IMG/VR virus record: IMGVR_UViG_3300029305_001467
Coordinates: 1 to 64,000 of that record
Strand: one strand, 5' to 3'
Length of the DNA stretch: 64,000 nt
DNA from: a virus
Taxonomy: Duplodnaviria > Caudoviricetes
Shown here: piece after piece, positions 27,922 to 63,931 of the stretch
Numbering within the stretch: the first letter of the stretch is position 1
Layout of the letters: each line of letters starts with the position of its first letter
Program-made: the position numbers and the translations under genes
Notes under the pieces: generated by a model
Seen by the model: the letters and a program-made list of their open reading frames with translations, nothing else
What the model was told of the DNA's origin: nothing
Database searches by the model: none

Positions 27922-28113
27922 TTTTCTCCCTCCTTCCTTTCTCCTTAAAATGCGTCTTTTATTGGCAAAATGACATCTAAAAGTGCTTGAAAATAAAGGG
28001 TTTTACGCTCCAAGTATTTTCGATAATCATCTCTTAAGACACCACGCATTGCAATTTCATACTGTTTTATCTCATTCTTAATAAAATCTGTTGCTTCTTG
28101 TAAAATCTTATCT

Positions 28114-28290
28114 TTACAGTTTGTAATATAAACCACAATGGCACTCACCACTTTCTTGCTCTCTAAATTCCTTACAAGGGCATTTCGTATCTGGTGTCTT
28201 ATCAATCCGACACGGACAGTAGCCACCATTCTCTTTTAGTTTTGTCAAGATTTCATTAACTAATTCTTTATCTTCGGATACTTTAATCAT
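28114..28290 (-). CDS. Ferredoxin:thioredoxin reductase catalytic-subunit-like protein (58 aa, not in ORF track)
   Basis: MIKVSEDKELVNEILTKLKENGGYCPCRIDKTPDTKCPCKEFREQESGECHCGLYYKL; CPC/CPC/CHC motifs; TAATG overlap with nrdG. Confidence 0.88.
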   Translation of the reverse strand: MIKVSEDKELVNEILTKLKENGGYCPCRIDKTPDTKCPCKEFREQESGECHCGLYYKL

Positions 28291-28763
28291 TAATTAATCC
28301 TTTCTGCGAATTGATTATCACTCGCCAAGTTTACTCCCAGAACTTTATCATAATGACTTTTTTGATTTGGGATATAGCGTCCAAACTTAACCACTATATT
28401 TGAAAATACAGAAATAGCTTTTATATAGTCTTGTATCTCTTCTTTGTAATATCCTGTATAAATTACTACATCGTCATCAGATATTTGTCTGAACCGAGAA
28501 ATCAACTCAAATAAATCTCCAAACGAATCAAATGGTTCTAACCCACCACACACTATAGATTTAGTGATATGATTACCAATATATCTTTCAATTACAGAAT
28601 CTACATCTACTTCAATGTTTTTTGCAGTAGCAAGTGTGCTATTTTGACACACTTGCATACCGCATTCTCTATCACATTTCCAACAACACTTAGGAAATAT
28701 GATAAACATGGAGGGTTTTTTGTAGTTTATGAAATCTTCATCTTGTATTCCTTTTAAAATCAT
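28290..28763 (-). CDS. nrdG: Anaerobic RNR activase (radical SAM)
   Basis: Cys cluster (C.WKC...C....CQN), GGLEP, VIYTGY, KFGRY, LASDNQ; adjacent to nrdD. Confidence 0.88.
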   Translation of the reverse strand: MILKGIQDEDFINYKKPSMFIIFPKCCWKCDRECGMQVCQNSTLATAKNIEVDVDSVIERYIGNHITKSIVCGGLEPFDSFGDLFELISRFRQISDDDVVIYTGYYKEEIQDYIKAISVFSNIVVKFGRYIPNQKSHYDKVLGVNLASDNQFAERIN

Positions 28764-30694
28764 AAAATCCCATCTTTCGAAGCAGCGTCATACCACTGTC
28801 TCTTATCAAATTCATTCTTGCGAATCTTCTGATAGCTACTTGTTGGAACATAGAAACCTACTACTCTACTATAAGTGTCATAGATTGGCTTACCACAATT
28901 CGGGCAATCCTTCGTCCCAATAAAAGCATGTCTATCCTCACAAATACTAATCTTAGTAGTAAATGCAAAGTAAATAACACCCTTGGATGCTACATAGTTC
29001 AACATATCCCACGCAACTTCATCGGTCGGGAATCTGTTCTGAATGTCAATATGTGCGATACATCCACCACCACACTTAGCATCAAACAGAGAACCTAAAC
29101 GACACTTTTCCTGAATAGTACATTTCTCCATAAGCGGAATCCACTGGTTAGAATAAATAAAGTACTTATTCTTCTCGAATAAAAGATTATCTGCTGTACA
29201 AATAACACCGGCACAGTTTTCAGCAGGAATCATTTCTACATTATACTTAAAGTCACATTCATACTCCTTAACAAAGCTATCCTTTACTTCATTAATTACC
29301 TCAAGGATTGAGGTAGCAAACTCAACTGCTTCATCGGAGTAAGACTTATTTCCAAACTCATCCGTATTGATAAGTTCAAATAAATCCATGACTTCGTAAA
29401 TGCCGATGCCACCAATGGTACAGAACTGCTTATCAAATTCTACTGCTCCATCCTGATAATTAGGAAGTAGACCCTTTTCGATGTTTCTCTTCAAAATGTG
29501 TCTCATGGAGTATAAAGCCTTACAATCAAGCATTACTCTATCTCTCAAAATATCAAGATACTTCTTCTTGTTAAACTTACTCTCATAGGCAATTCTTACA
29601 AGGTTAATTGTACTAACACGACAAGAGCCTACGGATAATGCAGTACCACCAATAGAGTTGATGAATGGATTTAACTCAGTGGTATCTGAGAGAAGTCTGC
29701 AACAATTAGACAAAACGCCAACATTATCACTTACAAAGAAGTTAGAATCAGACCACTTTCTGTTGTGGGAAGAACACCATCTTGCAAAATCTTCATCCTG
29801 GAACTTGCCATCCTTGTAAAGTAAACTGTAAGTTAAAATCGGATAAGTAAACATATTATGCTCTCTGATTTCACTTACAACTTCCATGAACACCTTCTGA
29901 CAATCAATTAGCTCTTCAATGCAGTCGATAGCGAATGTTCCATCTGGGAATTCTACTCCACCGAATAATGACTCAAGGTAGCATCTGTCGAAGATGGAAA
30001 TGTTGGTGAAGCTAGACTGATCAATTCTAAGGAATGGCTGATTAAGTCTATAGATAAACTTTTGGAAACACTGTCTCAAATAATAATCAGGAGACTTCAT
30101 ATAATATCCTTCTTCTACATCCTTCTTCCAAAAATAGTATGCCCATACAATTACATTTGGAAGCCCTACTGCGCCTGACTGACGGTTAGATAAGAATGAA
30201 ATAAATTCAATTACATTATCAAAATATGTAGTCAAGTGCTTTGGTGGCTGATGATTGTATCTATTTAAGAAGAACAATCCTTCAGTAGAAAGTCTTGTTA
30301 AATCGTTAGCCCAACAATACGGAAAGTAACTTGCAGTCGCAGAGTCATTGAGATAAAATCCCTTGCTAAACTCCTGTTCTAACCACTGCTTTGCAATTCT
30401 AAGTCCCCACTTCTTCTTCATTTCAAGGAAAATCTTATTAAGACCAAAGAGCTTGTCTGCACTCTTACCCTTTTCCGTCATGAAGCTACGAATATCTCTA
30501 TGGTTTGCATTAGCATTAGGGTCAATGCTAATATCTGCAAGAGTATCCTTTCTAACAAAATTATTAATAAACTCGGAATAATCTAACTGTGATGGATGAA
30601 CACCATTAATGTATTCGAAATCCTCACCATACTTCTTCTTTAAATCTTCAAGGCATCTTTCAAAATCCTTATTTAACTTAATGTTAATCTCCAA
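28760..30694 (-). CDS. nrdD: Class III anaerobic ribonucleotide reductase (no ATP cone)
   Basis: SNCCRL finger loop, IPAE, C-terminal Zn site and glycyl-radical SRVVGFY. Confidence 0.93.
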   Translation of the reverse strand: MEINIKLNKDFERCLEDLKKKYGEDFEYINGVHPSQLDYSEFINNFVRKDTLADISIDPNANANHRDIRSFMTEKGKSADKLFGLNKIFLEMKKKWGLRIAKQWLEQEFSKGFYLNDSATASYFPYCWANDLTRLSTEGLFFLNRYNHQPPKHLTTYFDNVIEFISFLSNRQSGAVGLPNVIVWAYYFWKKDVEEGYYMKSPDYYLRQCFQKFIYRLNQPFLRIDQSSFTNISIFDRCYLESLFGGVEFPDGTFAIDCIEELIDCQKVFMEVVSEIREHNMFTYPILTYSLLYKDGKFQDEDFARWCSSHNRKWSDSNFFVSDNVGVLSNCCRLLSDTTELNPFINSIGGTALSVGSCRVSTINLVRIAYESKFNKKKYLDILRDRVMLDCKALYSMRHILKRNIEKGLLPNYQDGAVEFDKQFCTIGGIGIYEVMDLFELINTDEFGNKSYSDEAVEFATSILEVINEVKDSFVKEYECDFKYNVEMIPAENCAGVICTADNLLFEKNKYFIYSNQWIPLMEKCTIQEKCRLGSLFDAKCGGGCIAHIDIQNRFPTDEVAWDMLNYVASKGVIYFAFTTKISICEDRHAFIGTKDCPNCGKPIYDTYSRVVGFYVPTSSYQKIRKNEFDKRQWYDAASKDGIL

Positions 30695-30707
30695 TATCCA
30701 ATCCTCC

Positions 30708-30908
30708 TTATAATGTGTTGACCCATTCAGCAGCCTTCGAAAAATCCATAACTTCTCCGTCTACTTCAAGCATTGGGACTGTTCGAAACCCCTTCTCTGT
30801 CATAATGTCAACATCAGTAATTTCTTCATAAACAACATCCTTATCATGAAGTTTCTTTTCTAATACTTTACACTTAGGACAGAACGTTGTGTATAAAACT
30901 ACCTTCAT
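30708..30908 (-). CDS. nrdH: Glutaredoxin-like NrdH redoxin
   Basis: CPKC active site, TVPMLEVDG. Confidence 0.8.
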   Translation of the reverse strand: MKVVLYTTFCPKCKVLEKKLHDKDVVYEEITDVDIMTEKGFRTVPMLEVDGEVMDFSKAAEWVNTL

Positions 30909-30998
30909 AAACTAAACCTCCTTTAAAAACTTTATATGTAAACGGTCAAATGACCAAATTTACCAATCTCCATGAAATGCCCAATTTAATACCAAAAA

Positions 30999-31229
30999 CT
31001 AGCGTATAAGGCTGAGAGAATCAATGATTCTAGCGTCACTTTCGCTTAAATTATAAAATTCGATGTCCAACTCGTTTTCCAAATCTAAACTGAAAATACC
31101 CATTAAACTCTTACCGTCAATAGTATACTTACCATGCTTGATAAGAATATCTCCACCTATCATCATCGCCTTAACAATGTACTGCTTAACTTCATCTACA
31201 TTGTTAAATCTAATCTTTGCTCTCATCAT
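30999..31229 (-). CDS. HPr-like protein 1
   Basis: IDGKSLMGIFSL (Ser46 signature); no His15 motif. Confidence 0.8.
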   Translation of the reverse strand: MMRAKIRFNNVDEVKQYIVKAMMIGGDILIKHGKYTIDGKSLMGIFSLDLENELDIEFYNLSESDARIIDSLSLIR

Positions 31230-31232
31230 TTT

Positions 31233-31415
31233 TTAATTATCCTCCTTTGTGTTTAATCTCCAATACATAATGCTATCATCTTTGTTAGCACATGTCTTTT
31301 TTCTCTGAATGCTTTCAACCATATATTCTTTATCACCCACATTTACAACAAGAAAACCATCTGGTTTATTAAGCAGCTCTCTTGCAAGCATGTGAGTGGT
31401 TGCAATGTAACTCAC
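31233..31415 (-). CDS. Hypothetical protein
   Basis: 60-aa ORF coupled to neighbours. Confidence 0.65.
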   Translation of the reverse strand: MSYIATTHMLARELLNKPDGFLVVNVGDKEYMVESIQRKKTCANKDDSIMYWRLNTKEDN

Positions 31416-31999
31416 TTAATACTTACTTCTCCTTTCAATCTTTTCAAATAAGCATGAACTGCTCTCCAATTGTCTAATCTGATACCTTCCCAATCTTCAT
31501 TCCAAGAATACTTTTCTCCAAAACAAATGTTAACCAAAGCATTACTTGTTTTTAGGTTAGAACTTGAGTCATCAATAAAAATACCAGTTCTCATCTCAGC
31601 AACATGACTCTTATCCTTATATTCCTTCATGTTGACTCCAATAAATCCACAGAACGGTAAGTTCTTCTCAATCCAAATCTGCTTTGCTCTAAGGTTGGGA
31701 CTGTAACCAGATGAAACGATTGTGATGTTGTAATCTTCACTTAATTCTTCTAAAATTTCTTTTGCATTTGGCATAAATTCCAACTTATCAAAGAATCTCT
31801 GTTGATTAAAATATGTATTGATATATTCCGGTGTCGCACATTCTAATTCTTTAAAATCCCATGTATTAATACTTCTCCAATCAACATGCTTGAATTTCTT
31901 GTAATATAGGAAATCTTCGTGATAACAGTCACAGATAGCTTTGATGTTTTGTACTATTACACCGTCAAAATCCACAAAAATATTATTCTTACTTAATAT
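31412..31999 (-). CDS. HAD-family 5'(3')-deoxyribonucleotidase (probable ATA start)
   Basis: DFDGV motif I, IFIDD motif IV; SD GGGTGAG before ATA 31999. Confidence 0.85.
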   Translation of the reverse strand: MLSKNNIFVDFDGVIVQNIKAICDCYHEDFLYYKKFKHVDWRSINTWDFKELECATPEYINTYFNQQRFFDKLEFMPNAKEILEELSEDYNITIVSSGYSPNLRAKQIWIEKNLPFCGFIGVNMKEYKDKSHVAEMRTGIFIDDSSSNLKTSNALVNICFGEKYSWNEDWEGIRLDNWRAVHAYLKRLKGEVSIK

Positions 32000-32564
32000 T
32001 TCTCTCACCCTTTCTTTCATTTGCAGAAACAAACTGAATTGTATCAGCTAATTCTTCAATTGACTTATTGCCATTATTTTCAATAAAGTAATCTACTTCA
32101 TTAAGAATGCCATTGAAGTCACGCTTATCTGCCCTCATCCTTCTTCTAGCTTCCTTACGATTATCACCACGTTCTTTTAATCTCTTTTTAAGAACAGACT
32201 TTTTTGCTTTTATATAAAAGGAAACAAAATCTAACCCCTTAATCTTTTTAATCGCTCTAAGACCATCTGGATTTAGAATGATTACAGTGTTGTCTGGTGC
32301 ATTCTTAAGGTCTTCTAAAGCAGTACCGTAATATACAGTACCCATATTTGCAGTGTTATAAGAAGTTGTTTCGGCAAATTCTTCCTTAAGTTCTTTTGTT
32401 AAAAAATCTCCTAGCGATACAAAGTGGTAGGCAATGCCGTTCACCTCTCCATCTCTAGGGAGTCTGGTAGTATACGTAACAATAGAGTTCATACCTCTTT
32501 TAATAAGTTCTTTTTTAATTGTGTCTTTTCCTGATGCACTTCGCCCCACTAACACCGTAATCAT
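31989..32564 (-). CDS. gmk: Guanylate kinase-like nucleotide kinase
   Basis: GRSASGKD P-loop; TYTTRLPRDGEVNGIAYHFVS. Confidence 0.88.
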   Translation of the reverse strand: MITVLVGRSASGKDTIKKELIKRGMNSIVTYTTRLPRDGEVNGIAYHFVSLGDFLTKELKEEFAETTSYNTANMGTVYYGTALEDLKNAPDNTVIILNPDGLRAIKKIKGLDFVSFYIKAKKSVLKKRLKERGDNRKEARRRMRADKRDFNGILNEVDYFIENNGNKSIEELADTIQFVSANERKGERNIK

Positions 32565-33136
32565 TATTCATCCTCCATTCCTAAACATAACTCCTTAAAA
32601 TAAGGAAGTCTTTCAATCTGTTTACAAAATTCTTTCCACTCAGGTAATCTGTGATTGCATCTTTGATGATAAATCGTCTTCAACTGTCTATAATTAGTTG
32701 TCATTGCAGCAGTCAGTTTAAAGCCACAAGGATTCGAATATAACAATCTAAGATAGTCCTCTGAATCTCCTGTTTCGTTGTACTTATCCTTTAACTCATT
32801 CATAATGGCAATGATGCGCTTGTCCGTATACTCGCTGTACTGATTATCCAAATCAAACTTCGCAATGCGGTGCATGGTAGACTGGCTGGAAATGAAATCA
32901 AGGAAATGATAACGCTCCGCCTCTGTCCATGCCTTTACCGTAAAGGTCAAATCAAACTGTACGATAATACCGGTTAAGAATTGGTCATGACCACTACCAG
33001 GTCTTGCATTGCCAAGTTTATAAGTGCGTGGTACGATGTCACCGTTTAACTCATCTACTGTAGTTGCCATTGGGAACTTACTTCCTCTTACCGAATTTTC
33101 TAAGCCATAAACATGTACATTTGTCATTACACTCAT
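32564..33136 (-). CDS. Divergent ThyX-like (flavin-dependent thymidylate synthase fold) protein
   Basis: GHDQFL...W.EAERYHF.....SQSTMH...NYRQLK.IY.QR..HRLPEW pattern in a nucleotide-metabolism cluster. Confidence 0.6.
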   Translation of the reverse strand: MSVMTNVHVYGLENSVRGSKFPMATTVDELNGDIVPRTYKLGNARPGSGHDQFLTGIIVQFDLTFTVKAWTEAERYHFLDFISSQSTMHRIAKFDLDNQYSEYTDKRIIAIMNELKDKYNETGDSEDYLRLLYSNPCGFKLTAAMTTNYRQLKTIYHQRCNHRLPEWKEFCKQIERLPYFKELCLGMEDE

Positions 33137-33379
33137 TTATTTCACCTCGTATCTTTCCATAAGCCAAGCAAACTCATTAATAGCTTCTGTGTTATCAGAT
33201 AAAAGTCTTACCTTTAAAACCTTATTCCTATCCAAAGAACATACGCCAATTAAAGACTTTGCATCAATTACCTTGCTCCCATCAATTAAATCTACATCAT
33301 CATGAAATGCAGTCACTACTCCAATGAAGTCTGTAATATCTTCTGGTGTCTTCAACTTAATCTTAATTTCATTCTTCAC
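33137..33379 (-). CDS. HPr-like protein 2
   Basis: IDAKSLIGVCSL (Ser46 signature); no His15 motif. Confidence 0.8.
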   Translation of the reverse strand: MKNEIKIKLKTPEDITDFIGVVTAFHDDVDLIDGSKVIDAKSLIGVCSLDRNKVLKVRLLSDNTEAINEFAWLMERYEVK

Positions 33380-33382
33380 TTT

Positions 33383-34346: not shown

Positions 34347-34376
34347 CTCATTTCTAATCTCCTTAAAAGTCCAAAT

Positions 34377-36677
34377 CTAAGAAGCCTCTTTAAGATTTTT
34401 ACACGTTTCCTTTATCAGTCTTTGCATAAATGTGTTTCTTGTAAAGTTTGCTTTCTTTTTAACCGCTAGATTTACAGTATCCACATTTCCTAAATGAAAA
34501 CATTTCTCTTTCATTCTTGTGAGTCCAACATATATCAAATTGGAATTCAACATATATGTATGACTCTGTGGAGTTAGCAAAATTACTACTTTAATAGAAC
34601 TGCCCTGGGATTTATGGATTGTAATACAATATCCTAGTCCAACCATCTGCATATCGTTCCTATAATATTTCACTGTCACACCATCAAAATCAATCAGTAG
34701 GTAGTTCTGAAAAACATCCTTTACAATACCTGTTTCTCCGTTTGCTATGAAAGTTTCTTTTAAATCATCATCGCTATAATCAAAGAAATCTTCGCCTATA
34801 AATAACTGCGCATGATAATTGTTCACGTTTTGGATTACCAAATCACCTTTATAATAAACAGCATCTCCAACTTTCATACACTCAGAACTTCCATAATTAG
34901 GATTTGCTACTTTCTGTATTGCATTGTTTATAAATAAAGTTCCGACATCACCTTTTTTGTAAGCAGTTAGCACTTGAATATCTTCAGCTTTATAACCTTG
35001 GCTAAGTAACTTACTATACAATCCTACTGCGTTTTTCACCATTATATCGCTACCAATGTTTACAAACGCATAATCTTTATTTGCCCCAAACCATGTAAAT
35101 TGATTATGCACTCCATGCAAATATTCTTTGCAAAAACGAACATCCGTAGCAACCTTCATTAATCCACCTTCACCATAACGAAATACTTTTGTAAGCGTTA
35201 CTGTTGGCATAATGTTAGATTCCATAAAATCATGTAATAGGTTTCCACATGATACAGAAGGCAACTGTGCATTATCGCCTATTAAAAGTAATTTTGTTCT
35301 TTTGAAATCAACTGCATCCAATATTCTTTTAAATAAGAAGATGTCTGCCATAGAGAACTCATCAATCAGCAAAGCATCGCAATCCAATTTGTGCTCTTCG
35401 TTATATGTCCACGTATCAGGTGGCATATACCCAAGCCCCCTATGTATTGTAGTAGCTTGTTCTTTTGTATAATCAGATAAAACTTTTGCAGCTTTGCCGG
35501 TTGGAGAAAATAATCTGAATGATTTATTATTATCTTTCAGCATGTTGATGACTGCTTGTGTTGAAAATGATTTTCCTGTTCCACCTGCGCCGTTCAAAAT
35601 GCATACATTATATCTACAAATATTTTTTACGATTTCTAATTGTTCATCAGATAATTCGCATCCATTAACAATACGATACTTGGTATAATCGAAATCCCAT
35701 CTGTTATCCGTATTGGCAAGTCCTTCAACTATTCTCTCTGCTATATACTTCTCTATTTCATATGTGCTTTTTAATGAAACAATCATTGATTCTTTATCAT
35801 AATAAATACTTTCATGTTTCATACATTCAACAAAATGATTCGAACAAGCTGGAACTAACTTCATACATTGATTTCTAAGGTCATTGATGGACATAAGTGT
35901 ATGTCCGTCTTCTTCATTTTTCTCAAGTAGATGTAACATGCAGGATAAACATCTATGTTTACTTGTTCTAAGTTCAGTTTCAAACTCTATAATTGAAGAC
36001 TTCCCATTCTTAACATTTTCTTTTGATACTTTCTCAAGCTCTAATAAAATACTATCGGCAGTTATGAATCCTACTCTAGCCAATCCACATAGGCATTTAT
36101 ATGGATCTTCTCTTAGTTTCTTTTTAATCATTGTTATAGATGTGTATTTTTCGTATAACTTTTTAAGCATTGGGAGGCTTAGTAATCCTTGAAACTCCAT
36201 TACCAACTCTGCTAAACAGAAATTTTCAACAATCTTGTTTTTGATAATATTAAAAGTATATTCCTTAATTCCGTGTAACTTATTAAGGTCTATATCGCCA
36301 AGATTATTGTTCATTACCCTATCAACTATGTCTGGATAAACTTTGTATAATGTTTGAGCTTGATTCAATGTGAGAATTTCTTGAAGGAAAACATACATAT
36401 CAGAAGCTGTTTGCGGTTTGTTCCTTCTTATATTAAGAACTTTATAACTGTAACCATATTTTGTATTTTGCTCTACAGCCTTAATTTCATATTCAATTCC
36501 AACTCCTAATTCATGAATCTCGCCAGTTATAGTTGCGTTTCCATACTTGGTAAATTTAATTTCTGGGTAGATGTCTTTGTCAACATCTACCGCATAAATC
36601 TTATAATCTCCACCATCATATGTTTGCCTTACAATTCTTCCTTTAAACAATACCTCTTTTTCATCTTTATTCTTCAA
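34377..36677 (-). CDS. RecD2-like SF1 helicase
   Basis: GAGGTGKS, IDEFSM, GDNAQLPSV, TIHKSQGS, YVGLTR. Confidence 0.92.
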   Translation of the reverse strand: MKNKDEKEVLFKGRIVRQTYDGGDYKIYAVDVDKDIYPEIKFTKYGNATITGEIHELGVGIEYEIKAVEQNTKYGYSYKVLNIRRNKPQTASDMYVFLQEILTLNQAQTLYKVYPDIVDRVMNNNLGDIDLNKLHGIKEYTFNIIKNKIVENFCLAELVMEFQGLLSLPMLKKLYEKYTSITMIKKKLREDPYKCLCGLARVGFITADSILLELEKVSKENVKNGKSSIIEFETELRTSKHRCLSCMLHLLEKNEEDGHTLMSINDLRNQCMKLVPACSNHFVECMKHESIYYDKESMIVSLKSTYEIEKYIAERIVEGLANTDNRWDFDYTKYRIVNGCELSDEQLEIVKNICRYNVCILNGAGGTGKSFSTQAVINMLKDNNKSFRLFSPTGKAAKVLSDYTKEQATTIHRGLGYMPPDTWTYNEEHKLDCDALLIDEFSMADIFLFKRILDAVDFKRTKLLLIGDNAQLPSVSCGNLLHDFMESNIMPTVTLTKVFRYGEGGLMKVATDVRFCKEYLHGVHNQFTWFGANKDYAFVNIGSDIMVKNAVGLYSKLLSQGYKAEDIQVLTAYKKGDVGTLFINNAIQKVANPNYGSSECMKVGDAVYYKGDLVIQNVNNYHAQLFIGEDFFDYSDDDLKETFIANGETGIVKDVFQNYLLIDFDGVTVKYYRNDMQMVGLGYCITIHKSQGSSIKVVILLTPQSHTYMLNSNLIYVGLTRMKEKCFHLGNVDTVNLAVKKKANFTRNTFMQRLIKETCKNLKEAS

Positions 36678-48817: not shown

Positions 48818-48854
48818 ATTCACCTCCTAAAATGCCAATAAAATAAGAATTTAA

Positions 48855-49289
48855 TTACTTCAACAACATATAGATGCCAAGTGGATAATAAATGTAATCT
48901 AACACAATGTTAAATAAGAAAATCCATCTGTGGAACTGCTTATCGTTAATTTCTGCTTCCAATTCGAATACACTGTTAAATTCCTTGATTAATGTTCTCA
49001 TTGCAATTACACAAGTAAGAATCTGTAATGCAGACAAGATAATAAACAATGTCGTTCCGATGCTGCATCCTAATACTGCATAGAAAATAATCAAGAATAA
49101 TTCGAACAACAACGTCAGAAAAAATGCCAAACTCTTAACTAAATCTGTGATTTGTTCTTCCTTTTCTTTTAACTCTGACTTACTTTTTCTTATGTTCTTC
49201 AACCACAACTTCTTATTTAATTCTCTTGGTGTATTCTTAATTCTGTGCAATAATAGTAAGAATAAAATAGCTAATGCAATAATCTTCAT
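48855..49289 (-). CDS. Multi-pass membrane protein
   Basis: About four hydrophobic segments. Confidence 0.75.
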   Translation of the reverse strand: MKIIALAILFLLLLHRIKNTPRELNKKLWLKNIRKSKSELKEKEEQITDLVKSLAFFLTLLFELFLIIFYAVLGCSIGTTLFIILSALQILTCVIAMRTLIKEFNSVFELEAEINDKQFHRWIFLFNIVLDYIYYPLGIYMLLK

Positions 49290-49307
49290 GTATTACTTCT
49301 CCTTTAC

Positions 49308-49706
49308 CTAGTCAATAGTTTCTACATTAATCGGAATCCACATATTCGGATTGAAGTTCAGTGTGTACTTATACTTGGAAACCGCATTGTCCCCCAAATT
49401 TAAATCCTCTACTACGTAGGTCACATTATCACTAAGTCCAACAAAGTGCTTTACATAAGTACCATTATCTTCAACAATAATCTCAAGCTGGTTGTCTGCC
49501 ATATCCGCAGTAATCGACAACTTACCAGTCATCTGGAATAGCACATCGCCCTCGATGCAGTTAATAACTGTGAGCTGACGAACAATATTGAAATTATCTG
49601 CTTCTTGAGAAAGATTGTATGATACTCTAGCTGCCTCTGTCTGACAACCGGCAAGACCTACAACCATAAAGGCTGCTACTAACAATGTTGCTAACTTCTT
49701 CTTCAT
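49308..49706 (-). CDS. Lipoprotein
   Basis: MKKKLATLLVAAFMVVGLAG-C lipobox; SD AAAGGAG. Confidence 0.8.
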   Translation of the reverse strand: MKKKLATLLVAAFMVVGLAGCQTEAARVSYNLSQEADNFNIVRQLTVINCIEGDVLFQMTGKLSITADMADNQLEIIVEDNGTYVKHFVGLSDNVTYVVEDLNLGDNAVSKYKYTLNFNPNMWIPINVETID

Positions 49707-49749
49707 ATTATTCTCCTTTCTTTTCACCATGAAATCGTACTTCTATTAC

Positions 49750-50330: not shown

Positions 50331-50373
50331 CCGTTATCACCTCTTCTCACTTTAAAAGATAAATTCTATTGAC

Positions 50374-51426
50374 TCACTTCTTACTTCTCTCTTTTGACTT
50401 CATCATTTCATAAAACTTTACATATTCTCTCGTATAAGCATAGCTATCAGAGAAAATATTATTTACTGCAATATATAGCTTTGGTTCGTGTTCCTTAATT
50501 ACTGCTAATTCGAACTCAAAGTCTCTACCAAACGGGCAACCAGCACAACCAGTTCTAGTCAACCCATATTCGGTATAACACTTACTATGAGTAACAATAT
50601 AATTTTCTTCATAATCAACTTTGTCTTCGTTTACATACCAAAATAAAGGTCTATAATTATCACAAGTACCACCCTCGTCAAAGCAACTCTTATACGAAGT
50701 TCCTCTAATTCCACCTTCAGCTTTTCTTACTCCAAAGATATTTAAGTCATATCCTTCGTATTCAACCAACTTATGTAAGACATCTTTCTTTGCATATTTG
50801 CAACACTTTGATGATATTTTGAATTTAGGTGGACTATTAACCATGAATTCTTTCAAATATTTATTGTAATCAATATTGAATCGTATCGACTCATTGGCAT
50901 TACACCACCACATCAAAGCCCCCTTGCAACCAACCCAATCTTGCTTCTTTTCATTCCATTTACAATACTTTTTAAGCAACACATCTAATGGTTCATCTTC
51001 CCATTGAAACCCATGACGTTGCAATCTATCAATCATTTCGGATGCATTCTTTGATATGAATGGTTGTCCATAAGTGCGACAACTTGTAGGAATTGGAACT
51101 ATTGCTTTATATGGCTTAATTGTTATACCATACTTTTCTTCTAAAAACTTTAAATGGTCTTTAGTTGCTTGATATTCCAAACCAGTATCAAACCAAACAT
51201 ACTCAACTATATTTCTCTGATCACATTGCCAAACTATATCTATCATTACATCACTATCAGAGCCACCAGACACAGCACAAACAATCTTTTCGTACTTTGG
51301 ACTGTTTATCTTTGACCACGCTCTAACAATGTTGTCTCCAATGGTAGGATTTTTTGGACACCTTTCCAATAACTCATTAATGTCTTTTGGTTTAGTTAAA
51401 TTTATACTTTTATGGTGTAGTTGCAA
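50374..51426 (-). CDS. PAPS-reductase-family protein with Fe-S motifs
   Basis: SGGSDS PP-loop, FDTGLEY, KCC, GVRKAEG, RTGCAGCP. Confidence 0.88.
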   Translation of the reverse strand: MQLHHKSINLTKPKDINELLERCPKNPTIGDNIVRAWSKINSPKYEKIVCAVSGGSDSDVMIDIVWQCDQRNIVEYVWFDTGLEYQATKDHLKFLEEKYGITIKPYKAIVPIPTSCRTYGQPFISKNASEMIDRLQRHGFQWEDEPLDVLLKKYCKWNEKKQDWVGCKGALMWWCNANESIRFNIDYNKYLKEFMVNSPPKFKISSKCCKYAKKDVLHKLVEYEGYDLNIFGVRKAEGGIRGTSYKSCFDEGGTCDNYRPLFWYVNEDKVDYEENYIVTHSKCYTEYGLTRTGCAGCPFGRDFEFELAVIKEHEPKLYIAVNNIFSDSYAYTREYVKFYEMMKSKERSKK

Positions 51427-51554
51427 ATACCCTTAAAAGTAGCTACTTGAAGATTATTGGAAAGGAGTCAAGCAAGTAATTCTAGATAATTGACTGTATA
51501 CAGCCTTGCAAATAAAGTATTTTGCAAGATAAAGATAAAAGTATAATTTTCTTG

Positions 51555-51971: not shown

Positions 51972-52093
51972 TGATATCACCTCCAATATCTCGATAAAAT
52001 TAGGCTTTCATTGCCATCATTAATCACTTATTACTTCTCTTTTTATTCTTGGAATTCCGTTTATGTTTGTGTGTGCAGCGTCGCCAAACGCTT

Positions 52094-52276: not shown

Positions 52277-52325
52277 ATTTGCGTCCTTTCAAATTTTCTT
52301 GATAAATCCGAAATTTTAACAGGAT

Positions 52326-53604: not shown

Positions 53605-53638
53605 ATTCTCACCTCAATTCCACCTTAAAACGTTTGAT

Positions 53639-53926
53639 TTATTGTTTTTCTTTCACAATATCAAAGAACTTGTATGTCTTATTTAACTCATTGAATCTAT
53701 TAACGATTACTGTATGTCCTATCAAATCTAATTTATCTTTACCAAACTTCATTACAATATGACACACATGTAAATCACTTAGCATATGTACAGGAATTAA
53801 AGTGCCATCTTCTTTCTCCCAATAATACTTTTCACTATTTGCAATTGTTTTATTTTTATCACAATCTTCTCGCCAATCATTGCTCATAAATTCTCCTTTC
53901 AGACCACCATGAAATCCCCGTTTCAT
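53639..53926 (-). CDS. Hypothetical protein
   Basis: Track ORF; stop lies inside a junction motif. Confidence 0.65.
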   Translation of the reverse strand: MKRGFHGGLKGEFMSNDWREDCDKNKTIANSEKYYWEKEDGTLIPVHMLSDLHVCHIVMKFGKDKLDLIGHTVIVNRFNELNKTYKFFDIVKEKQ

Positions 53927-55762: not shown

Positions 55763-55803
55763 GTTATATACCTCACTTTCTCCTTAAAACACAGGATTTA
55801 TTG

Positions 55804-57786: not shown

Positions 57787-57815
57787 AACTAATTTCTCCT
57801 TATGAAATGCTGCTT

Positions 57816-58073: not shown

Positions 58074-58097
58074 TATTCATTTCCTCCCATGAAAGTG

Positions 58098-58601
58098 TTA
58101 TTTTATTGGGTCTTCTGCTACCTCAAACTTAATCGGTAGCAATGCCGTTGTTCTTCTTTTCATCCACGGTTTTTCTTCTGTTGCGAACTCATCACCATAT
58201 TCCTGACAGAGAACAATGTCTCCTATTGTATATTTAAAGTGATGAGTGTTAAAGCATTCTTCGTCATCCGGAACCTTGGTTAATACTGCTGTGTTATATG
58301 TCTGACAGGATAACACCTTATATAAAACATCTTGCATCGCTTCAAAATCAAAAATCAAAGTTCCGTCATTTGCATTTCTACTCATTGAAAAATAATTAAA
58401 ATCTGCTTCTGGGTCATAGCAAATATTTGCAACTTGATGCTCACTATTGCCAACAGTAATACCAGTTTCTAAAGCTCTTGATTCATACATCTTTTCAAAA
58501 ATATCAACTGGATTATACTCGACCATTGATTCGTATTTGCATTTTGATAAACCGGTATCTCCATCGGAAATTCTTTGTTTAATATAATCTAATGACTTTA
58601 T
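58098..58601 (-). CDS. Hypothetical protein (probable ATA start)
   Basis: GTGAGGT-AAATT-ATA, in frame with the track ORF. Confidence 0.7.
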   Translation of the reverse strand: MKSLDYIKQRISDGDTGLSKCKYESMVEYNPVDIFEKMYESRALETGITVGNSEHQVANICYDPEADFNYFSMSRNANDGTLIFDFEAMQDVLYKVLSCQTYNTAVLTKVPDDEECFNTHHFKYTIGDIVLCQEYGDEFATEEKPWMKRRTTALLPIKFEVAEDPIK

Positions 58602-58604
58602 AAT

Positions 58605-58835
58605 TTACCTCACTTCCTCTAAAGTGTCTTCAATTATCCATGCTAATTCATGAAAGTGATTGTTTTTGTTTAAAATGCCTTCAATCTCACCATCTTTATT
58701 TTTCACCAAATAACCAGTAACCCAACAACCGTTGGCTGGTCTTTTTGCTCTGAAAAATTCAGCACTAACTTCACGATTCGCTTTACAATACGTGCAAGTC
58801 TGTTCTGAACGAAAACATAAATTATTACAACCCAT
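58605..58835 (-). CDS. YopX-like fragment protein
   Basis: FFRAKR..NG.WV.GYL resembles the YopX N-terminus. Confidence 0.55.
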   Translation of the reverse strand: MGCNNLCFRSEQTCTYCKANREVSAEFFRAKRPANGCWVTGYLVKNKDGEIEGILNKNNHFHELAWIIEDTLEEVR

Positions 58836-58869
58836 AATTACCTCACAATAGAACTTTGTTTTTATCTGC

Positions 58870-59058
58870 TTAACACAAAGCTTCTATCTCTTCATCCGAA
58901 ACACAGTCACATTCAATCGCACAATCAAAATGTTCACTCAGAAGTCCGAGCCAGTCATGTTCTGAAATACTATGACCGGAAGCCCATACAGTACCGTTTA
59001 CTTCAAGAATCTGCCAATCTCCAGATTCGCAATTTATTAACTTAACAACATTATCCAT
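58870..59058 (-). CDS. Hypothetical protein
   Basis: Track ORF. Confidence 0.65.
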   Translation of the reverse strand: MDNVVKLINCESGDWQILEVNGTVWASGHSISEHDWLGLLSEHFDCAIECDCVSDEEIEALC

Positions 59059-59093
59059 ATCTTTTTATCCCCTTTAGATGTTAATTTTATTGT

Positions 59094-59243
59094 TTATTCC
59101 ATTTCATCAAGTATTGCTTTAATATCTTCAATATAATCAAACGCAGTGTTTCTACCATCTACACCGTAAAATATTTCTGCGATATCATATATATTTTCTA
59201 ATTGATTTAGAATAAGATTCTTTACATCTTCCTTTACATCCAT
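59094..59243 (-). CDS. Hypothetical protein
   Basis: ATG after GGAGGT. Confidence 0.6.
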   Translation of the reverse strand: MDVKEDVKNLILNQLENIYDIAEIFYGVDGRNTAFDYIEDIKAILDEME

Positions 59244-59272
59244 TTCTTTAACCTCCGAATAAAATATTAGTT

Positions 59273-59569
59273 TCAACGGTATATCTTGGGTAATTTTTTA
59301 AATGCGATAACATCATCTCTTTCGCATAACTTGTCGTGCCATATCTGTTTCTTTATGGGTTGTTCAATGATGTTTACGCCATATCCATATACCTCATACT
59401 CTTGAAAAACATTTGAACGTCTATTGTCTTTCCAAACTTCTCTTACCTCATCCCAAAATAAATCCATTACATATGCTTGTCCCGGTTCTTCTCCATATCT
59501 AATGGAACAAATATACCAGCCACGTTTCTTTGGTTTGTGTTTAGGATAAGGCTTCCATCTATTAAACAT
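59273..59569 (-). CDS. DUF551-like small protein
   Basis: W.PYP..KP...G.Y....VIAF..LP..Y. Confidence 0.6.
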   Translation of the reverse strand: MFNRWKPYPKHKPKKRGWYICSIRYGEEPGQAYVMDLFWDEVREVWKDNRRSNVFQEYEVYGYGVNIIEQPIKKQIWHDKLCERDDVIAFKKLPKIYR

Positions 59570-59609
59570 TATTTATTCCTCCCGATAAAAGCAAAATTCA
59601 ATTGTTATT

Positions 59610-59990
59610 TTATTCAGGTTTACCTACAATATCTTCATCTGTCCAAGTATCGTTTTTAAAATTTTCTCTACACTTTTCAATACATTCTAACTTTGAATCA
59701 GATTTATTGACATAAACCTTTGGTGTCTGAAATTCGCAATAGTGACATTTTAATTGTGCAGATGATGCTCCAACTCCACTACTTGCAAACACATATAAAC
59801 CACTGTTGCAATATGGACATAAATATAGTTCTTTTTCTATGTCTACATCCTTTTCTTTGCTTGTTACTTTGACATCTATATTATCTAACTTGGTATTTAT
59901 GGTATTAATCCTTGCATGTAAAAGTCCATTAGATGCAATCCATATAATTACCATTACAATTAGTACAATATCTGTTATGTTTTTCTTCAT
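59610..59990 (-). CDS. Membrane-anchored Zn-finger protein (Lar-like CxxC pair)
   Basis: N-terminal TM; LCPYC...KCHYC. Confidence 0.6.
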   Translation of the reverse strand: MKKNITDIVLIVMVIIWIASNGLLHARINTINTKLDNIDVKVTSKEKDVDIEKELYLCPYCNSGLYVFASSGVGASSAQLKCHYCEFQTPKVYVNKSDSKLECIEKCRENFKNDTWTDEDIVGKPE

Positions 59991-60024
59991 TTTCTACCTC
60001 CAAAATCTAAATAAAAGAGTTGTT

Positions 60025-60510
60025 TTATTTAGTCTTCATCTGCTCTCTAAATTCATTAACATAATCATAAATACTTGCATGTGTCCAACTTCTTGTTTCA
60101 CTACTTAAATGCAATCCATTATTTTTCTTTGCTTTTTCGTGAAGAAAATTAGCAAATTCATTTACTGCATAATCTCTTTCGTTAGCACAATCACACTTCC
60201 ATGAGGTACATCCTGCACAATCTTCGCATTTAGATTCTTCCGTTTGAAATTTTCTTTTAAACTCATCTTCACTATATGAAAACCACATCGGATATCCATA
60301 AGTATCACTTTCTTCGACCCACCATCCATATTGAAATTCTCTTGACACATGAACCATATCATAAGCATGTACTTCCACTGCTTTATCAGTAACTTCTACT
60401 GTTATATAATCTTGGTCATAGTTTGGATATGCTTCTTTCAAGAACTCTTCATAATTATCCTTTGTAAGATAAATACACCTATATTGACTATTTAATATAC
60501 ATTTCTTCAT
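60025..60510 (-). CDS. Hypothetical protein
   Basis: Single gene between junction motifs 60011 and 60529. Confidence 0.7.
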   Translation of the reverse strand: MKKCILNSQYRCIYLTKDNYEEFLKEAYPNYDQDYITVEVTDKAVEVHAYDMVHVSREFQYGWWVEESDTYGYPMWFSYSEDEFKRKFQTEESKCEDCAGCTSWKCDCANERDYAVNEFANFLHEKAKKNNGLHLSSETRSWTHASIYDYVNEFREQMKTK

Positions 60511-60548
60511 CTTCTACCACCTCTCCTAATGAATTGAAAATTTCATGG

Positions 60549-60770
60549 CTATTCCACCTTTACCTTAATATCGTTTGACAGACCACTTGTAGCCAAAATA
60601 ATCTTTGCTACCTTTTCTGCATTACAATCTCTTATTAATGCTTTTGCTAAATCTAATTCAAAGAATTTTGCTTTGTCATTAAAGCTTTTTATAATAATTC
60701 CATCATATTCTTCTCGATGATTTAGCCATCCTTCAAATTCATCTAAACACTGTCTAATATTCTCAAACAT
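60549..60770 (-). CDS. Hypothetical protein
   Basis: Track ORF. Confidence 0.65.
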   Translation of the reverse strand: MFENIRQCLDEFEGWLNHREEYDGIIIKSFNDKAKFFELDLAKALIRDCNAEKVAKIILATSGLSNDIKVKVE

Positions 60771-60774
60771 TCAA

Positions 60775-61206
60775 TCACCATACCTTATCAAATCTAAATT
60801 CTCCATCTCTAGTGTTATATTCTGCCAATCTAAATCGCCCAGCAGAAACTAATCCTTCTCTAAAGCCATACCTCTTAGCCCACTTCTTATTAATTCTCTT
60901 CTTTCTATGTCTGCGAACTTGAACTGTTCCTTTAACTTTCATATCAAATTCAGGACTTTTATAAACCAAAGGATTATAAAGAATAGCATCTAATACGTCT
61001 TGATCCCATTTTGTTTTTGCTTCAAAAGTAGCTTCAGTAGGTACATGTCCACTCACAGATATAGGTAACTCTTCTTCAGCAGACAACAACGGCATCTCTA
61101 ACACTGCAGCCTGGATGCCATCCATCTTAAAGCTCCGTCCAGTTTCTTTATCTTCAATAGAAACAGAACGGAAAGTGCATTCACCAACATTAAACATTCC
61201 GTACAT
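60775..61206 (-). CDS. Hypothetical protein with RRHRKKRINKKWAKRYG basic motif (possibly tail-tube-like N-terminus)
   Basis: SD GGAGG; see findings. Confidence 0.65.
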   Translation of the reverse strand: MYGMFNVGECTFRSVSIEDKETGRSFKMDGIQAAVLEMPLLSAEEELPISVSGHVPTEATFEAKTKWDQDVLDAILYNPLVYKSPEFDMKVKGTVQVRRHRKKRINKKWAKRYGFREGLVSAGRFRLAEYNTRDGEFRFDKVW

Positions 61207-61233
61207 TATTTATCCTCCGAATTATCTAACTTT

Positions 61234-61611
61234 CTAAAAACTATATGTGTTTTTAATAAAACTCTCTTCTGCCTTCAAAGCATCAATCATTACTCTCTTT
61301 AAATGCTCGTCCGTTACAACATAACAAACGTCATCCGGAACATTGTAATCTGCCAAAAAATAAGTTAATGGATTCATTAAATGTTGCTCAATAACAGCTA
61401 ACTTTGTTTTTGGACTACACATGATTACAGTTGAGTTCTTGTCTGTATACTCTTTAAAATCTTTAATTGCATTGAGAATCTGTTGTGCATTAATAGGCTC
61501 TATAGATTTGTTCGTAACGAAAGTATTGAACAACCATTTATTATCTTCTTTTTCTTGTTTGATTCTTTCTTCATATATTTTTTGATTTACTTTATCAAAA
61601 AGATTATTCAT
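61234..61611 (-). CDS. Hypothetical protein (capsid A-domain-like pattern)
   Basis: ATG after GGAGGTGG; see findings. Confidence 0.65.
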   Translation of the reverse strand: MNNLFDKVNQKIYEERIKQEKEDNKWLFNTFVTNKSIEPINAQQILNAIKDFKEYTDKNSTVIMCSPKTKLAVIEQHLMNPLTYFLADYNVPDDVCYVVTDEHLKRVMIDALKAEESFIKNTYSF

Positions 61612-61864
61612 TAGCCACCTCCGGGAATATCTCAAATTCTACACAAGTTGCCACACGATGAGGATTGTTGTAATCGATATCTACAGGAATGCCCAATATA
61701 GTATTAGGTTCATCCTCATGATCATGATGAGGCACAAATACTCCTTCAGTTAATCGTGCAATTATTTCTTCTCCAAGAATAATTTTATTTGGTCTTATGT
61801 TGTAGTTATATTCCAATGTGTCAATACTGGTACGAAGGGACTTGATAATATCTTCTGCTCTCAT
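61604..61864 (-). CDS. Hypothetical protein (capsid A-domain-like pattern)
   Basis: PNKIILG...TILGIPV. Confidence 0.7.
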   Translation of the reverse strand: MRAEDIIKSLRTSIDTLEYNYNIRPNKIILGEEIIARLTEGVFVPHHDHEDEPNTILGIPVDIDYNNPHRVATCVEFEIFPEVANE

Positions 61865-61888
61865 TAGTTCTCCTTGTTCGATTGTTTC

Positions 61889-62179
61889 TTATCTAATTTC
61901 TACTTCTCCATATGCTAAATCATTATTTTCAAATATTTTATAACCATTATATAATCCGCAACTTCCACCTTTACCAAGAGTAATAAATCTTAAGGCAACT
62001 TCGTTAAGCAGATTAACTTTAACATCATACTTTGATACTTTGTTTGCTATAGAAGCAATAGTATCTTTGCTCATGAAAATATATGGACGAACTTCACCAG
62101 TTACTATAGAATATTCATCAATACCTTTATCTAACTTTTCCAAATCTAGTTCTTTAATTATTGAAAACTTCTTACTCAT
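61889..62179 (-). CDS. Hypothetical protein (capsid A-domain-like pattern)
   Basis: PYIFMS..T...YNGYKI..NNDL.YGEV. Confidence 0.7.
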   Translation of the reverse strand: MSKKFSIIKELDLEKLDKGIDEYSIVTGEVRPYIFMSKDTIASIANKVSKYDVKVNLLNEVALRFITLGKGGSCGLYNGYKIFENNDLAYGEVEIR

Positions 62180-62204
62180 ATAACCTCCTGTTAAAATTGA
62201 TATT

Positions 62205-62453
62205 TTATTCTGTATAAATCGTATTCATTATTTGTGCATATGCGAGACCATCTCGATCCAAACTTATACTCACATCAAATACTTCTTCACTGTCCAAGAT
62301 TAAAAATTTCAACATGATATCATCTTTAAGCGGTTTCATTTTACTTGCATATTCAAAACAATAATTTATTACTTCTTTAAAAGAATGAAATGTTAAGTCA
62401 GCAGATATTAACTTTCTACTACCTTTTTCTCTGATTAATTTTTCAATTACCAT
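62205..62453 (-). CDS. Hypothetical protein
   Basis: Track ORF. Confidence 0.65.
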   Translation of the reverse strand: MVIEKLIREKGSRKLISADLTFHSFKEVINYCFEYASKMKPLKDDIMLKFLILDSEEVFDVSISLDRDGLAYAQIMNTIYTE

Positions 62454-62455
62454 AT

Positions 62456-62656
62456 TTATTCTCCATCAAACTGATTTTGATTTACTGCATAATACTTAAA
62501 AACGAATTCACCAACCTCTGCCGAAGTTGAGTAATGATAGATGTAATATCCCGCTTTCTTCTTTTCTTCAATTTCTTTTTCAGCGCAATCCATCAATTCA
62601 TCATACTTATTACTTCTCAGCTCTATGTTTTCTATTCTTCTTATCAAGTAACTCAC
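62456..62656 (-). CDS. Hypothetical protein
   Basis: Track ORF. Confidence 0.55.
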   Translation of the reverse strand: MSYLIRRIENIELRSNKYDELMDCAEKEIEEKKKAGYYIYHYSTSAEVGEFVFKYYAVNQNQFDGE

Positions 62657-62999
62657 CTATCCTTATATTGACTTTTATTTTTCTTTCTTCATAACACTTC
62701 TTTGCTCGCTCAAACAAATCAATAGTGTCCCCATTTAGAGCTGCATTAAAGTTATAATAGCAACCACCTCTGTTATATCCTTTAATTGTTTCCTTGCTAT
62801 ATTCAATTGCATGTTTATCATCTGTCCAGCCACTTACATCTATTGAACCTGCCAAATAGTTACCACATTCGCACTTATAATGTCTTATGGGTCTACCATA
62901 CCCATCTCGCACATTCGTAATAGTTTCTTCTCCCTTGTATGGATTATCATTTCTGATTTCTTCCTTGTTGCATTCCGGGCAATAAAATAATCTACTCAT
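62610..62999 (-). CDS. Zn-ribbon protein
   Basis: CPEC...CECG. Confidence 0.7.
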   Translation of the reverse strand: MSRLFYCPECNKEEIRNDNPYKGEETITNVRDGYGRPIRHYKCECGNYLAGSIDVSGWTDDKHAIEYSKETIKGYNRGGCYYNFNAALNGDTIDLFERAKKCYEERKIKVNIRIGELLDKKNRKHRAEK

Positions 63000-63029
63000 A
63001 ATTCACCTCTCAATAAAACGGTACTTCTA

Positions 63030-63275
63030 TTAGTTTGCCCAAAGTCTAATTCCACGTTCTTCACATAACATTCCAAGAAAACTACTTCTTTCACATAAAT
63101 CCTTTTCATACTCTTCTCTTTCTTGGATGTCTACCAAATCATATCCAAGTTCATACATCCGTTCCGTTTGACTACCTAAAGAATCAAAAGCAACTTCGTA
63201 ATACTCATCTTCTAACTCTTTATCAGTTACAGATGCGGCCCATTTAATAATTGCATCTCGTTCAGATTTCTTCAT
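63030..63275 (-). CDS. Hypothetical protein
   Basis: SD AAGGAGG. Confidence 0.7.
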   Translation of the reverse strand: MKKSERDAIIKWAASVTDKELEDEYYEVAFDSLGSQTERMYELGYDLVDIQEREEYEKDLCERSSFLGMLCEERGIRLWAN

Positions 63276-63286
63276 TGGTATCCTCC

Positions 63287-63496
63287 TTACTTATCCAACA
63301 GCCAATCCAACTCATCAACAATATCATTCAATTCTTCGTTATCCTTTGTATATAAATCAGCGATTTCTTTATCTGTCATTTGATATCCAAGATAATCCCA
63401 ACCATTAACTATAAATTCTCTATAAGTTTCTGTGTTAGTTGCTCCTTCTAAACAATCACAAATTCTTCTATCTAAGTTATCTTTAATATTCTCCAT
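63287..63496 (-). CDS. Hypothetical protein
   Basis: MENIKD... after GGAAGG. Confidence 0.65.
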   Translation of the reverse strand: MENIKDNLDRRICDCLEGATNTETYREFIVNGWDYLGYQMTDKEIADLYTKDNEELNDIVDELDWLLDK

Positions 63497-63509
63497 AACA
63501 ACCTTCCCT

Positions 63510-63656
63510 TTAATAACCAACTCTCACAACCGACACAATGCCATATTCTTCTTCATAATCTAAATTGTCTAGTGCGTCACTGGGCGTTTCACCCTCATGA
63601 ATTACCGTATAACCATTCTCAAAAACTATAATCCATTTATAAACAAGTCTTCCCAT
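63510..63656 (-). CDS. Hypothetical 48-aa protein (not in track)
   Basis: MGRLVYKWIIVFENGYTVIHEGETPSDALD...; SD GGAGGT. Confidence 0.6.
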   Translation of the reverse strand: MGRLVYKWIIVFENGYTVIHEGETPSDALDNLDYEEEYGIVSVVRVGY

Positions 63657-63837
63657 CGTTACCTCCATATATAATCTCTTTAACTTTTTCTATTATTTCT
63701 AAGAAATATTTACGTCCCATTCTAGGAGGATAACATACATATATATTATCTTTATTCTCTATCTCTTTTATAATTTCTTTCTGAATTGGAAGTAACTTAA
63801 TATTGAACTTCTGCTCTACAAATTCTATACAATCCAT
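63637..63837 (-). CDS. Small protein resembling the terminase large-subunit N-terminus
   Basis: FVE..F.IKL.P.QK.I...Y....R.G.KYFL. Confidence 0.6.
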   Translation of the reverse strand: MDCIEFVEQKFNIKLLPIQKEIIKEIENKDNIYVCYPPRMGRKYFLEIIEKVKEIIYGGNDGKTCL

Positions 63838-63931
63838 GTTATCCTCCTTTCTCCATGAAACTGATGTTTTATCGGGAAAATCGACCTCTGAAACCCTTGA
63901 AAATAAAGGGTTTCAGAAAGCCAACTTCCAA

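Follow-up and report, generated by a model that had tools for sequence, protein, structure and literature searches.

What is the function of an 18-bp inverted motif, WTRRAW-N6-WTYYAW, that recurs at gene junctions in the early region of a large phage? The motif was noticed in the first 64 kb (64,000 nucleotides, hereafter the window) of the 100.5-kb IMG/VR phage record IMGVR_UViG_3300029305_001467, for which CheckV gives a completeness of 62%. Why the breakpoints in mosaic phage genomes lie where one gene ends and the next begins is a question of long standing, with two classical explanations: conserved linkers between genes, or random illegitimate recombination followed by selection. A first-pass annotation of the window, made from the letters alone, proposed that the motif marks an integron-like array of gene cassettes. 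Here we describe about 70 such sites, each with a six-base core of its own. Many of these cores stand in the same order in related phages, and most of the genes next to them have been replaced. We suggest that the sites may be crossover points for cassette exchange between phages, and we weigh this proposal against a regulatory role.

A Spaced Dyad at Gene Junctions

The window contains 30 matches to the pattern WTRRAW-N6-WTYYAW, where dinucleotide shuffles give 9.87 +/- 2.9 (maximum 19). Of the 30, 24 fall into gaps that separate minus-strand genes at 27.9-63.9 kb. In the whole record there are 71 strict matches, 67 of them within the minus-strand region of 26-100.5 kb, and the array reaches the record end. 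The spacing is specific. When the gap between the arms is varied from N0 to N12 in the minus-strand region, N6 gives 67 matches and the other gaps give 5-17, and the reversed arm order WTYYAW-N6-WTRRAW shows no excess (9 matches). This specificity resides outside open reading frames (ORFs), where there are 56 matches at N6 and 0-11 at other spacings; inside ORFs the 11 matches at N6 are background (5-14 at other gaps). Non-coding matches with a 5-nt gap number 11 in the early region, the remaining gaps giving 0-4, and these are possibly variant sites. Matches in the tail-gene region (1-24.5 kb) are at chance level only, also with a weight matrix. The matrix, built from the sites, recovers 69 sites in the early region.

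The placement of the sites is equally regular. From the motif end to the next start codon the distance is 11-28 nt in about 49 cases. Genome-wide, the upstream ORF stops at arm positions 2-4 in 19 of about 59 cases, 38 of 59 upstream ORFs (64%) are in the frame in which the TRR of the arm is a stop codon, and eleven end two codons before it. Site-free junctions mostly join overlapping or tightly coupled genes, and the units that the sites bound in the early/accessory region comprise 1-5 genes each. The consensus is C-R-ATRRAA-(T-N4-R)-TTYYAT-N-G, in which the pattern gains a preceding C and a following G, each two bases away from the site. Within the core there is a bias at the outer positions (first T/C, last A/G), and the cores are all unique within the genome, with 0 duplicates among 69 sites. 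Much of this had been read correctly in the first-pass annotation. Its 24 good copies equal the number found in the minus-strand gene gaps, its example coordinates and its nine cases of a stop codon within the arm are correct, and its statements that all spacers differ and that motif-free junctions are mostly tightly coupled genes hold, as does an enrichment over background, which it had put up for testing. As a separate observation, a GAGA/GGAG block occupies positions 19-23, after the motif, even where a working ribosome-binding site follows 8-15 nt further on. This block may be an extension of the dyad, like the C before and the G after.

Core Order Is Conserved While Genes Are Replaced

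Relatives were found by a ligase-based search, which returned many phages of 130-200 kb. The strict motif is dense in three lineages only. These are the present phage, G034, and a type that we call G004, which is represented by four overlapping IMG/VR fragments and whose ligase is 72% identical. The motif is likewise dense in L118, an 8.4-kb metagenome contig whose ligase is 83% identical. In other lineages of the phage family the relatives of the motif are looser, and a search of viral contigs with the junction pattern returned only the four G004-type fragments.

This phage and G004 have 26 identical 6-bp cores, where 0.96 are expected, and all 26 are collinear, where shuffled orders leave 7.7 collinear on average and never more than 12. 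With L118, this phage shares nine identical cores (9/9 collinear) and G004 shares ten (10/10 collinear), about one or fewer being expected in each comparison. Downstream of the ligase the three phages have a single ordered series of cores, of which each carries a subset, and almost none of the genes between these cores are related among the three. Only 5 of the 27 intervals between orthologous sites show any translated similarity; 22 show none. Blocks of 34-42 nt at two junctions have 93-97% identity, with unrelated genes to either side.

The core is the best-conserved part of the site, which indicates that its identity matters. Over 28 collinear site pairs core identity is 0.97, compared with 0.29 at random site pairs, although this value is biased, since the cores served in part to identify the orthologous sites, and this counts against the proposal made below. 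The corresponding values are 0.76 and 0.72 for the 5' arm, 0.85 and 0.77 for the 3' arm, 0.46 and 0.39 for the leader, and 0.33-0.35 and 0.31 for the flanks. Two results are free of this bias, namely the collinearity and the ratio of identical to one-off cores. The first scan gave 24 identical cores, 4 that are one base off and 15 unmatched, whereas neutral drift at the divergence of the ligase (about 25% of nucleotides) would leave one-off cores about twice as frequent as identical ones. Core constancy has thus outlasted both the randomisation of the degenerate arm positions and the replacement of most neighbouring genes. G034 has the same motif and shares cores with this phage not beyond chance, so that the synteny test has no replication there.

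The sites in the window and the features that adjoin them are as follows.

27945-27962, minus strand: strict junction site in the replication/nucleotide module, preceded by a degenerate copy of the 63.9-kb hairpin
30972-30989, minus strand: strict junction site
34363-34380, minus strand: junction site whose arm holds the stop codon of the RecD-like helicase
48838-48855, minus strand: junction site with one deviant arm position (weight-matrix scan)
49729-49746, minus strand: junction site
50352-50369, minus strand: junction site
51396-51413, minus strand: junction site at the right end of a 157-bp module, the cores of the sites at the two module ends being mutually reverse-complementary
51414-51534, no strand assigned: inner segment of the 157-bp module, opposite to its G004 homologue relative to the gene array (local alignment, blastn)
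51535-51552, minus strand: variant site with deviant arm position 2, left end of the 157-bp module
51994-52011, minus strand: junction site
52302-52319, minus strand: junction site, core collinear in G004 and L118
52828-52845, minus strand: junction site, core and leader common to G004 and L118, both flanking genes different
53625-53642, minus strand: junction site, core and leader common to G004 and L118, both flanking genes different
53909-53926, minus strand: junction site over an ORF start, core found in G004 by a loose pattern only and outside the collinear pairs
55784-55801, minus strand: junction site, core common to G004 and L118
56000-56017, minus strand: junction site, core common to G004 and L118
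56389-56406, minus strand: junction site, core common to G004 and L118
56808-56825, minus strand: junction site, core common to G004 and L118
57802-57819, minus strand: junction site
58089-58106, minus strand: junction site
58848-58865, minus strand: junction site
59259-59276, minus strand: junction site, L118 core one substitution off with order kept
59585-59602, minus strand: junction site with one deviant arm position, core common to L118
60011-60028, minus strand: junction site, core common to G004
60529-60546, minus strand: junction site, core common to G004 and L118
62191-62208, minus strand: junction site
63013-63030, minus strand: junction site
63855-63872, minus strand: junction site right after a terminator-like hairpin, L118 core one substitution off
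63885-63919, minus strand: terminator-like hairpin with a 14-bp stem, after the DNA ligase gene and immediately upstream of the site, conserved in G004
24998-26164, minus strand: Tn916/Tn1549-type tyrosine integrase (PHROG integrase, 1.4e-65; PDB 6emy, Tn1549 Int, 4e-36)

A 69-nt stretch of hairpin, junction site and leader is repeated in the window with 79% identity (27935-28003 and 63845-63914). Of the two hairpin copies, the one at 63.9 kb is intact and the one at 27.9 kb degenerate, and in G004 the hairpin is conserved beside a different gene.

Base Composition of the Arms

The base frequencies of the two arms mirror each other. At every arm pair the counts of Watson-Crick and G-U combinations equal the expectation under independence, and A-C mismatches are as frequent as chance predicts (12 and 6, where 11.8 and 5.6 are expected). 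Compensatory changes that would keep an RNA stem paired were looked for across the arm pairs and were not found. T2, A5 and T14 are invariant although the weight matrix permits change, and the matrix scores the two strands almost alike, with 69 and 65 matches, that is, the site is dyad-symmetric and undirected. Arms without covariation exclude a selected RNA or DNA hairpin, and the sites are predicted, by these sequence statistics, to be double-stranded DNA bound by a two-fold symmetric protein. The first-pass annotation had reached the same view from arms that seemed to vary independently, and the pair counts bear it out.

Possible Exchange at Matching Cores

The fixed N6 spacing and the mirror-image arms amount to two inverted arms around an overlap of 6-8 bp, which is the simple core geometry of tyrosine-recombinase sites. 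Partner sites in the Cre, Flp, Xer and lambda systems must share their overlap sequence. Likewise loxP, FRT and dif consist of inverted arms and a 6-8 bp overlap; exchange needs the same overlap, and different spacers do not cross-react. The array resembles loxP, FRT and dif, and their use in laboratory cassette exchange, in having inverted arms around a 6-bp overlap, and differs in that its arms are short (6-9 bp) and degenerate and that about 70 different spacers occur in one natural genome.

A function of the arms only does not predict cores that are unique within a genome and constant across phages. Such cores are expected if the function is to match each site with its counterpart in a second genome. 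Together with the need for a shared overlap, the geometry leads us to read the sites as address-tagged crossover points. The comparison of sequences thus suggests, with a probability that we put at about one in two, that the sites are position-specific crossover points of tyrosine-recombinase geometry for the ordered exchange of cassettes between phages. We are somewhat more hesitant about the wider picture of a natural scaffold of about 70 heterospecific recombination sites, in which the 6-bp cores would be addresses and co-infecting relatives would reassort their cassettes junction by junction.

Exchange of this kind would proceed as follows. The 6-bp core would give each site a position-specific address, and strand exchange of the tyrosine-recombinase type would take place only between sites with the same core. 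The partners would be corresponding junctions of two related phages that co-infect a cell. All that lies to one side would be swapped, so that genes stay unbroken and their order is kept, and the uniqueness of the cores would prevent deletions inside one genome. Exchange inside the core, the enzyme responsible and a selection for exchange that keeps the cores constant are the steps that we infer. If a recombinase is involved, the array would supply dozens of naturally occurring sites that are orthogonal to one another. If the address reading is true, the system would be nature's version of recombinase-mediated cassette exchange and would give molecular form to the long-postulated phage 'linker' sequences. 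With these sites the linker idea becomes directly testable in one system.

Possible Rearrangements at the Sites

Some structural differences among relatives are consistent with exchange at the cores. The two end cores of the 157-bp module (51396-51552) are reverse complements of each other both here and in G004; they differ by 2 nt between the two phages, and the pairing is kept in both. The inner segment aligns with that of G004 with a local score of 49 when inverted and 13 in the same orientation, while the outer flanks have diverged beyond orienting. Within a group of relatives whose genomes are 93-100% identical, a two-gene insert is flanked by a direct repeat of the core and 3' arm. One address in the same group joins at least four left flanks to three right flanks. 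The first-pass annotation had named breakpoints in the N6 core as a check on related genomes. Cores that are syntenic between unrelated genes are in keeping with such breakpoints, and some breakpoints lie outside the core, at the ribosome-binding site or the start codon.

Candidate Recombinases

The record encodes two tyrosine recombinases that, judged by their residues, look catalytically intact; no serine recombinase was found in the records. One is the integrase at 24998-26164. The other, P0001, is encoded in the middle of the array (record 88477-89505), and the residues R-K-HxxR-H-Y are kept in all six homologues. A PDB search with the P0001 sequence gave nothing significant, and its predicted structure is poor (mean pLDDT 47.5). 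P0001 is a candidate enzyme for the sites, and its presence across phages does not track the motif consistently.

The integrase is probably a prophage integrase and not the partner of the sites, because its published target polarity is opposite. The integration consensus of Tn1549 is TTTT-N6-AAAA, a T-rich arm and then an A-rich one (PMC5871717). Tn916/Tn1549-type targets comprise a T-rich arm, a crossover of 5-7 bp and an A-rich arm; this order is not enriched here (9 matches), the order in the array being A-rich and then T-rich.

Points Against Exchange at the Cores

Several observations weigh against the proposal of address-restricted exchange. The distribution of P0001 is one of these. Phages that lack the strict motif encode close orthologues (54-60% identity), the G004 counterpart is only 33% identical, and G034, with its roughly 50 sites, does not have the protein. 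The 157-bp module lies at a different array position in G004, so that inversion in place is not demonstrated, and a conserved long stem could be another cause of the paired cores. Two homologous small genes occupy different slots among the three phages, which requires more than address-restricted exchange alone. Conservation at some addresses extends through the leader as far as the ribosome-binding site although the gene differs, and hence some breakpoints are outside the core. Breakpoints in the relative group lie in part at start codons and ribosome-binding sites. For the group with the looser motif (G012-type), breakpoints are about 1.5-fold enriched at motif-bearing junctions relative to other junctions, in counts that rest on loosely defined sites and are pseudo-replicated. 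Homologous recombination over junction blocks of 13-45 nt, as for the PeSL elements discussed below, could yield much of the pattern.

Recombination was not seen directly in metagenome data. Contigs from four faecal DNA runs were aligned to 46-64 kb of the window. The contigs of the phage itself are identical to the window over this interval, and no structural variants of the phage were seen among contigs from six faecal runs. Apparent joints in the faecal contigs have sides of 20-34 nt and come from the junction sequences of a co-occurring relative. As a side observation, a second related phage (contig of about 132 kb, depth 20-32; compare window 49298-49719) is present in the faecal runs X1-X6, where this phage has a depth of about 5. 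The second phage resembles the G004 type.

A Regulatory Role and Other Explanations

The main rival was already named in the first-pass annotation as a dispersed operator for a dimeric regulator, and we keep it in that place. It holds that the dyad is an operator, a roadblock or a promoter-type element, one for each small transcription/translation unit, to which a dimeric phage or host protein binds, comparable to stoperators or SPBRE/MrpR. Gene exchange would then be a by-product of homologous or microhomology recombination, with junction blocks of 15-45 nt as linkers, as in PeSLs. This explanation is possible, and we consider it distinctly less probable than crossover at matching cores. It draws on the position of the sites directly upstream of ribosome-binding sites, where GAGA/GGAG often follows even when the real ribosome-binding site is further on, and on the occurrence of motif variants throughout the phage family. 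Only one strong minus-strand hairpin adjoins a site in the 18 kb scanned, at 63.9 kb; there the site is the sole element between the hairpin and the next gene and may therefore be needed for expression. The leaders conserved with the core at some addresses, and the breakpoints at start codons and ribosome-binding sites, also fit this view, and PeSL (PMC2839356) and SPBRE/MrpR (PMC10516654) are precedents for it.

The regulatory explanation meets difficulties elsewhere. A regulator that reads the arms leaves unexplained why the cores are conserved more strictly than the arms, the leaders and the best-conserved gene. Even if it is correct, the strictly conserved and unique 6-bp centres need an explanation. 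There is no excess of sigma-70-type promoter signals (74 predicted sites, 85 expected), and the motif geometry is unlike that of a -35/-10 promoter. Moreover, the dyad has no direction while the genes all run one way. The two roles need not compete, as the dyad may have a regulatory role alongside one in recombination.

Known phage systems show how far the likeness goes. The PeSL cassettes of T4-type phages and the 'linker' model of Botstein (PMC2839356) are similar in that the small accessory genes of hyperplastic early regions have short conserved intergenic elements on their flanks, and PeSLs have likewise been proposed as places of module exchange that leave genes unbroken. PeSLs differ in having sigma-70-like promoters, GC-rich stem-loops and one common sequence, and they are thought to act by homologous recombination. 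The sites of the array are instead 18-bp dyads without a stem, each with a unique core that is conserved by position; a promoter and terminator stem-loop per element, as in PeSLs, were not found. The stoperators of Cluster A mycobacteriophages and the 17-bp repeats of Cluster O (PMC4351075) are alike in comprising dozens of short protein-type sites in intergenic gaps of long operons. These repeats have constant sequences, the Cluster O centre being mostly TTT/AAA, and stoperators are asymmetric and oriented, whereas the present site, when examined for such asymmetry and fixed orientation, is dyad-symmetric. Few if any Cluster O repeats were seen by the authors at breakpoints of insertion, deletion or rearrangement (PMC4351075). 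The SPBRE element of SPbeta is repeated between genes in a large Firmicutes prophage and is bound by MrpR, a repressor with a tyrosine-recombinase fold (PMC10516654). It comprises about ten promoter-associated sites with one 15-bp motif, and MrpR lacks the catalytic residues, in contrast to about 70 sites at gene junctions and a candidate recombinase with all catalytic residues here. As the candidate keeps these residues, SPBRE/MrpR is an analogy only.

Integron-like capture and shuffling of cassettes, with a Tn916-type integrase that recombines non-identical cores, was the original proposal for the window and now appears very unlikely. Sites at cassette boundaries, a stop codon within the arm in 19 of about 59 cases, and membership of the integrase at 24998-26164 in the Tn916/Tn1549 family speak for it. 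The array also resembles integron attC arrays in having one site per cassette boundary, cassettes without recognisable sigma-70 promoters and an expected tyrosine recombinase, and in attC sites too the stop codon is often inside the site. However, the Tn1549 consensus is opposite in polarity and not enriched (PMC5871717), and free exchange between different cores would scramble their order, whereas the cores are collinear in three phages and are the best-conserved part of the site. An IntI-type integrase was not detected with TIGR02249 (cut-off 265 bits), which scores the integrase at 34.6 and the G004 recombinase at 17.7 and gives no hit to P0001. attC sites are 57-141 bp long, fold as single strands with paired arms, and recombine with attI regardless of position through IntI. 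The site of the array has 18-22 bp, no arm pairing and a conserved order of cores. In integrons an attI site and a Pc promoter adjoin the integrase, and cassettes are inserted there; by gene order, the array recombinase lies mid-array. What survives of the original proposal is the tie between the sites and gene replacement, seen in syntenic cores with unrelated genes between them; the integron-type capture does not.

The least probable explanation, one that we can practically set aside, is an RNA-level signal, namely an AU-rich hairpin or translational operator between cistrons, which would suit an element on the transcribed strand between stop codon and ribosome-binding site but is contradicted by the missing covariation and the expected level of A-C mismatches, by A-rich and U-rich arms whose mirror-image frequencies cannot be those of equal RNA half-sites, and by the core conservation that it leaves unexplained.

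Genomic Context

The first 24.5 kb of the record hold tail genes on the plus strand, a tape measure gene among them. From about 26 kb to the record end all genes are on the minus strand. They encode an anaerobic ribonucleotide reductase, a RecD-like helicase, a DnaE-type polymerase, a PD-(D/E)XK nuclease, a DnaB-like helicase, an NAD ligase, C5 methyltransferases and about 100 small ORFs. Among named phages, protein search places Clostridium phage c-st and C. difficile phiCD211 nearest, with DnaE 50-55% identical, and a nucleotide search of a phage collection gave no match. The top genome match is a metagenome-assembled genome of Eubacteriales from gut (70%), and DNA of the phage is present in animal faecal metagenomes. 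The host group is gut Clostridia, and the phage is large and temperate.

Three further features were observed. An ORF for an HNH/homing endonuclease (window 3907-5004, within 3469-5402) lies between the tape-measure frame pieces at 124-3471 and 5402-6361. Beyond the window, at 69724-71606 of the record, two neighbouring C5 cytosine methyltransferase genes are part of the array. The array also encodes two proteins with GmrSD_N/ParB-like nuclease domains.

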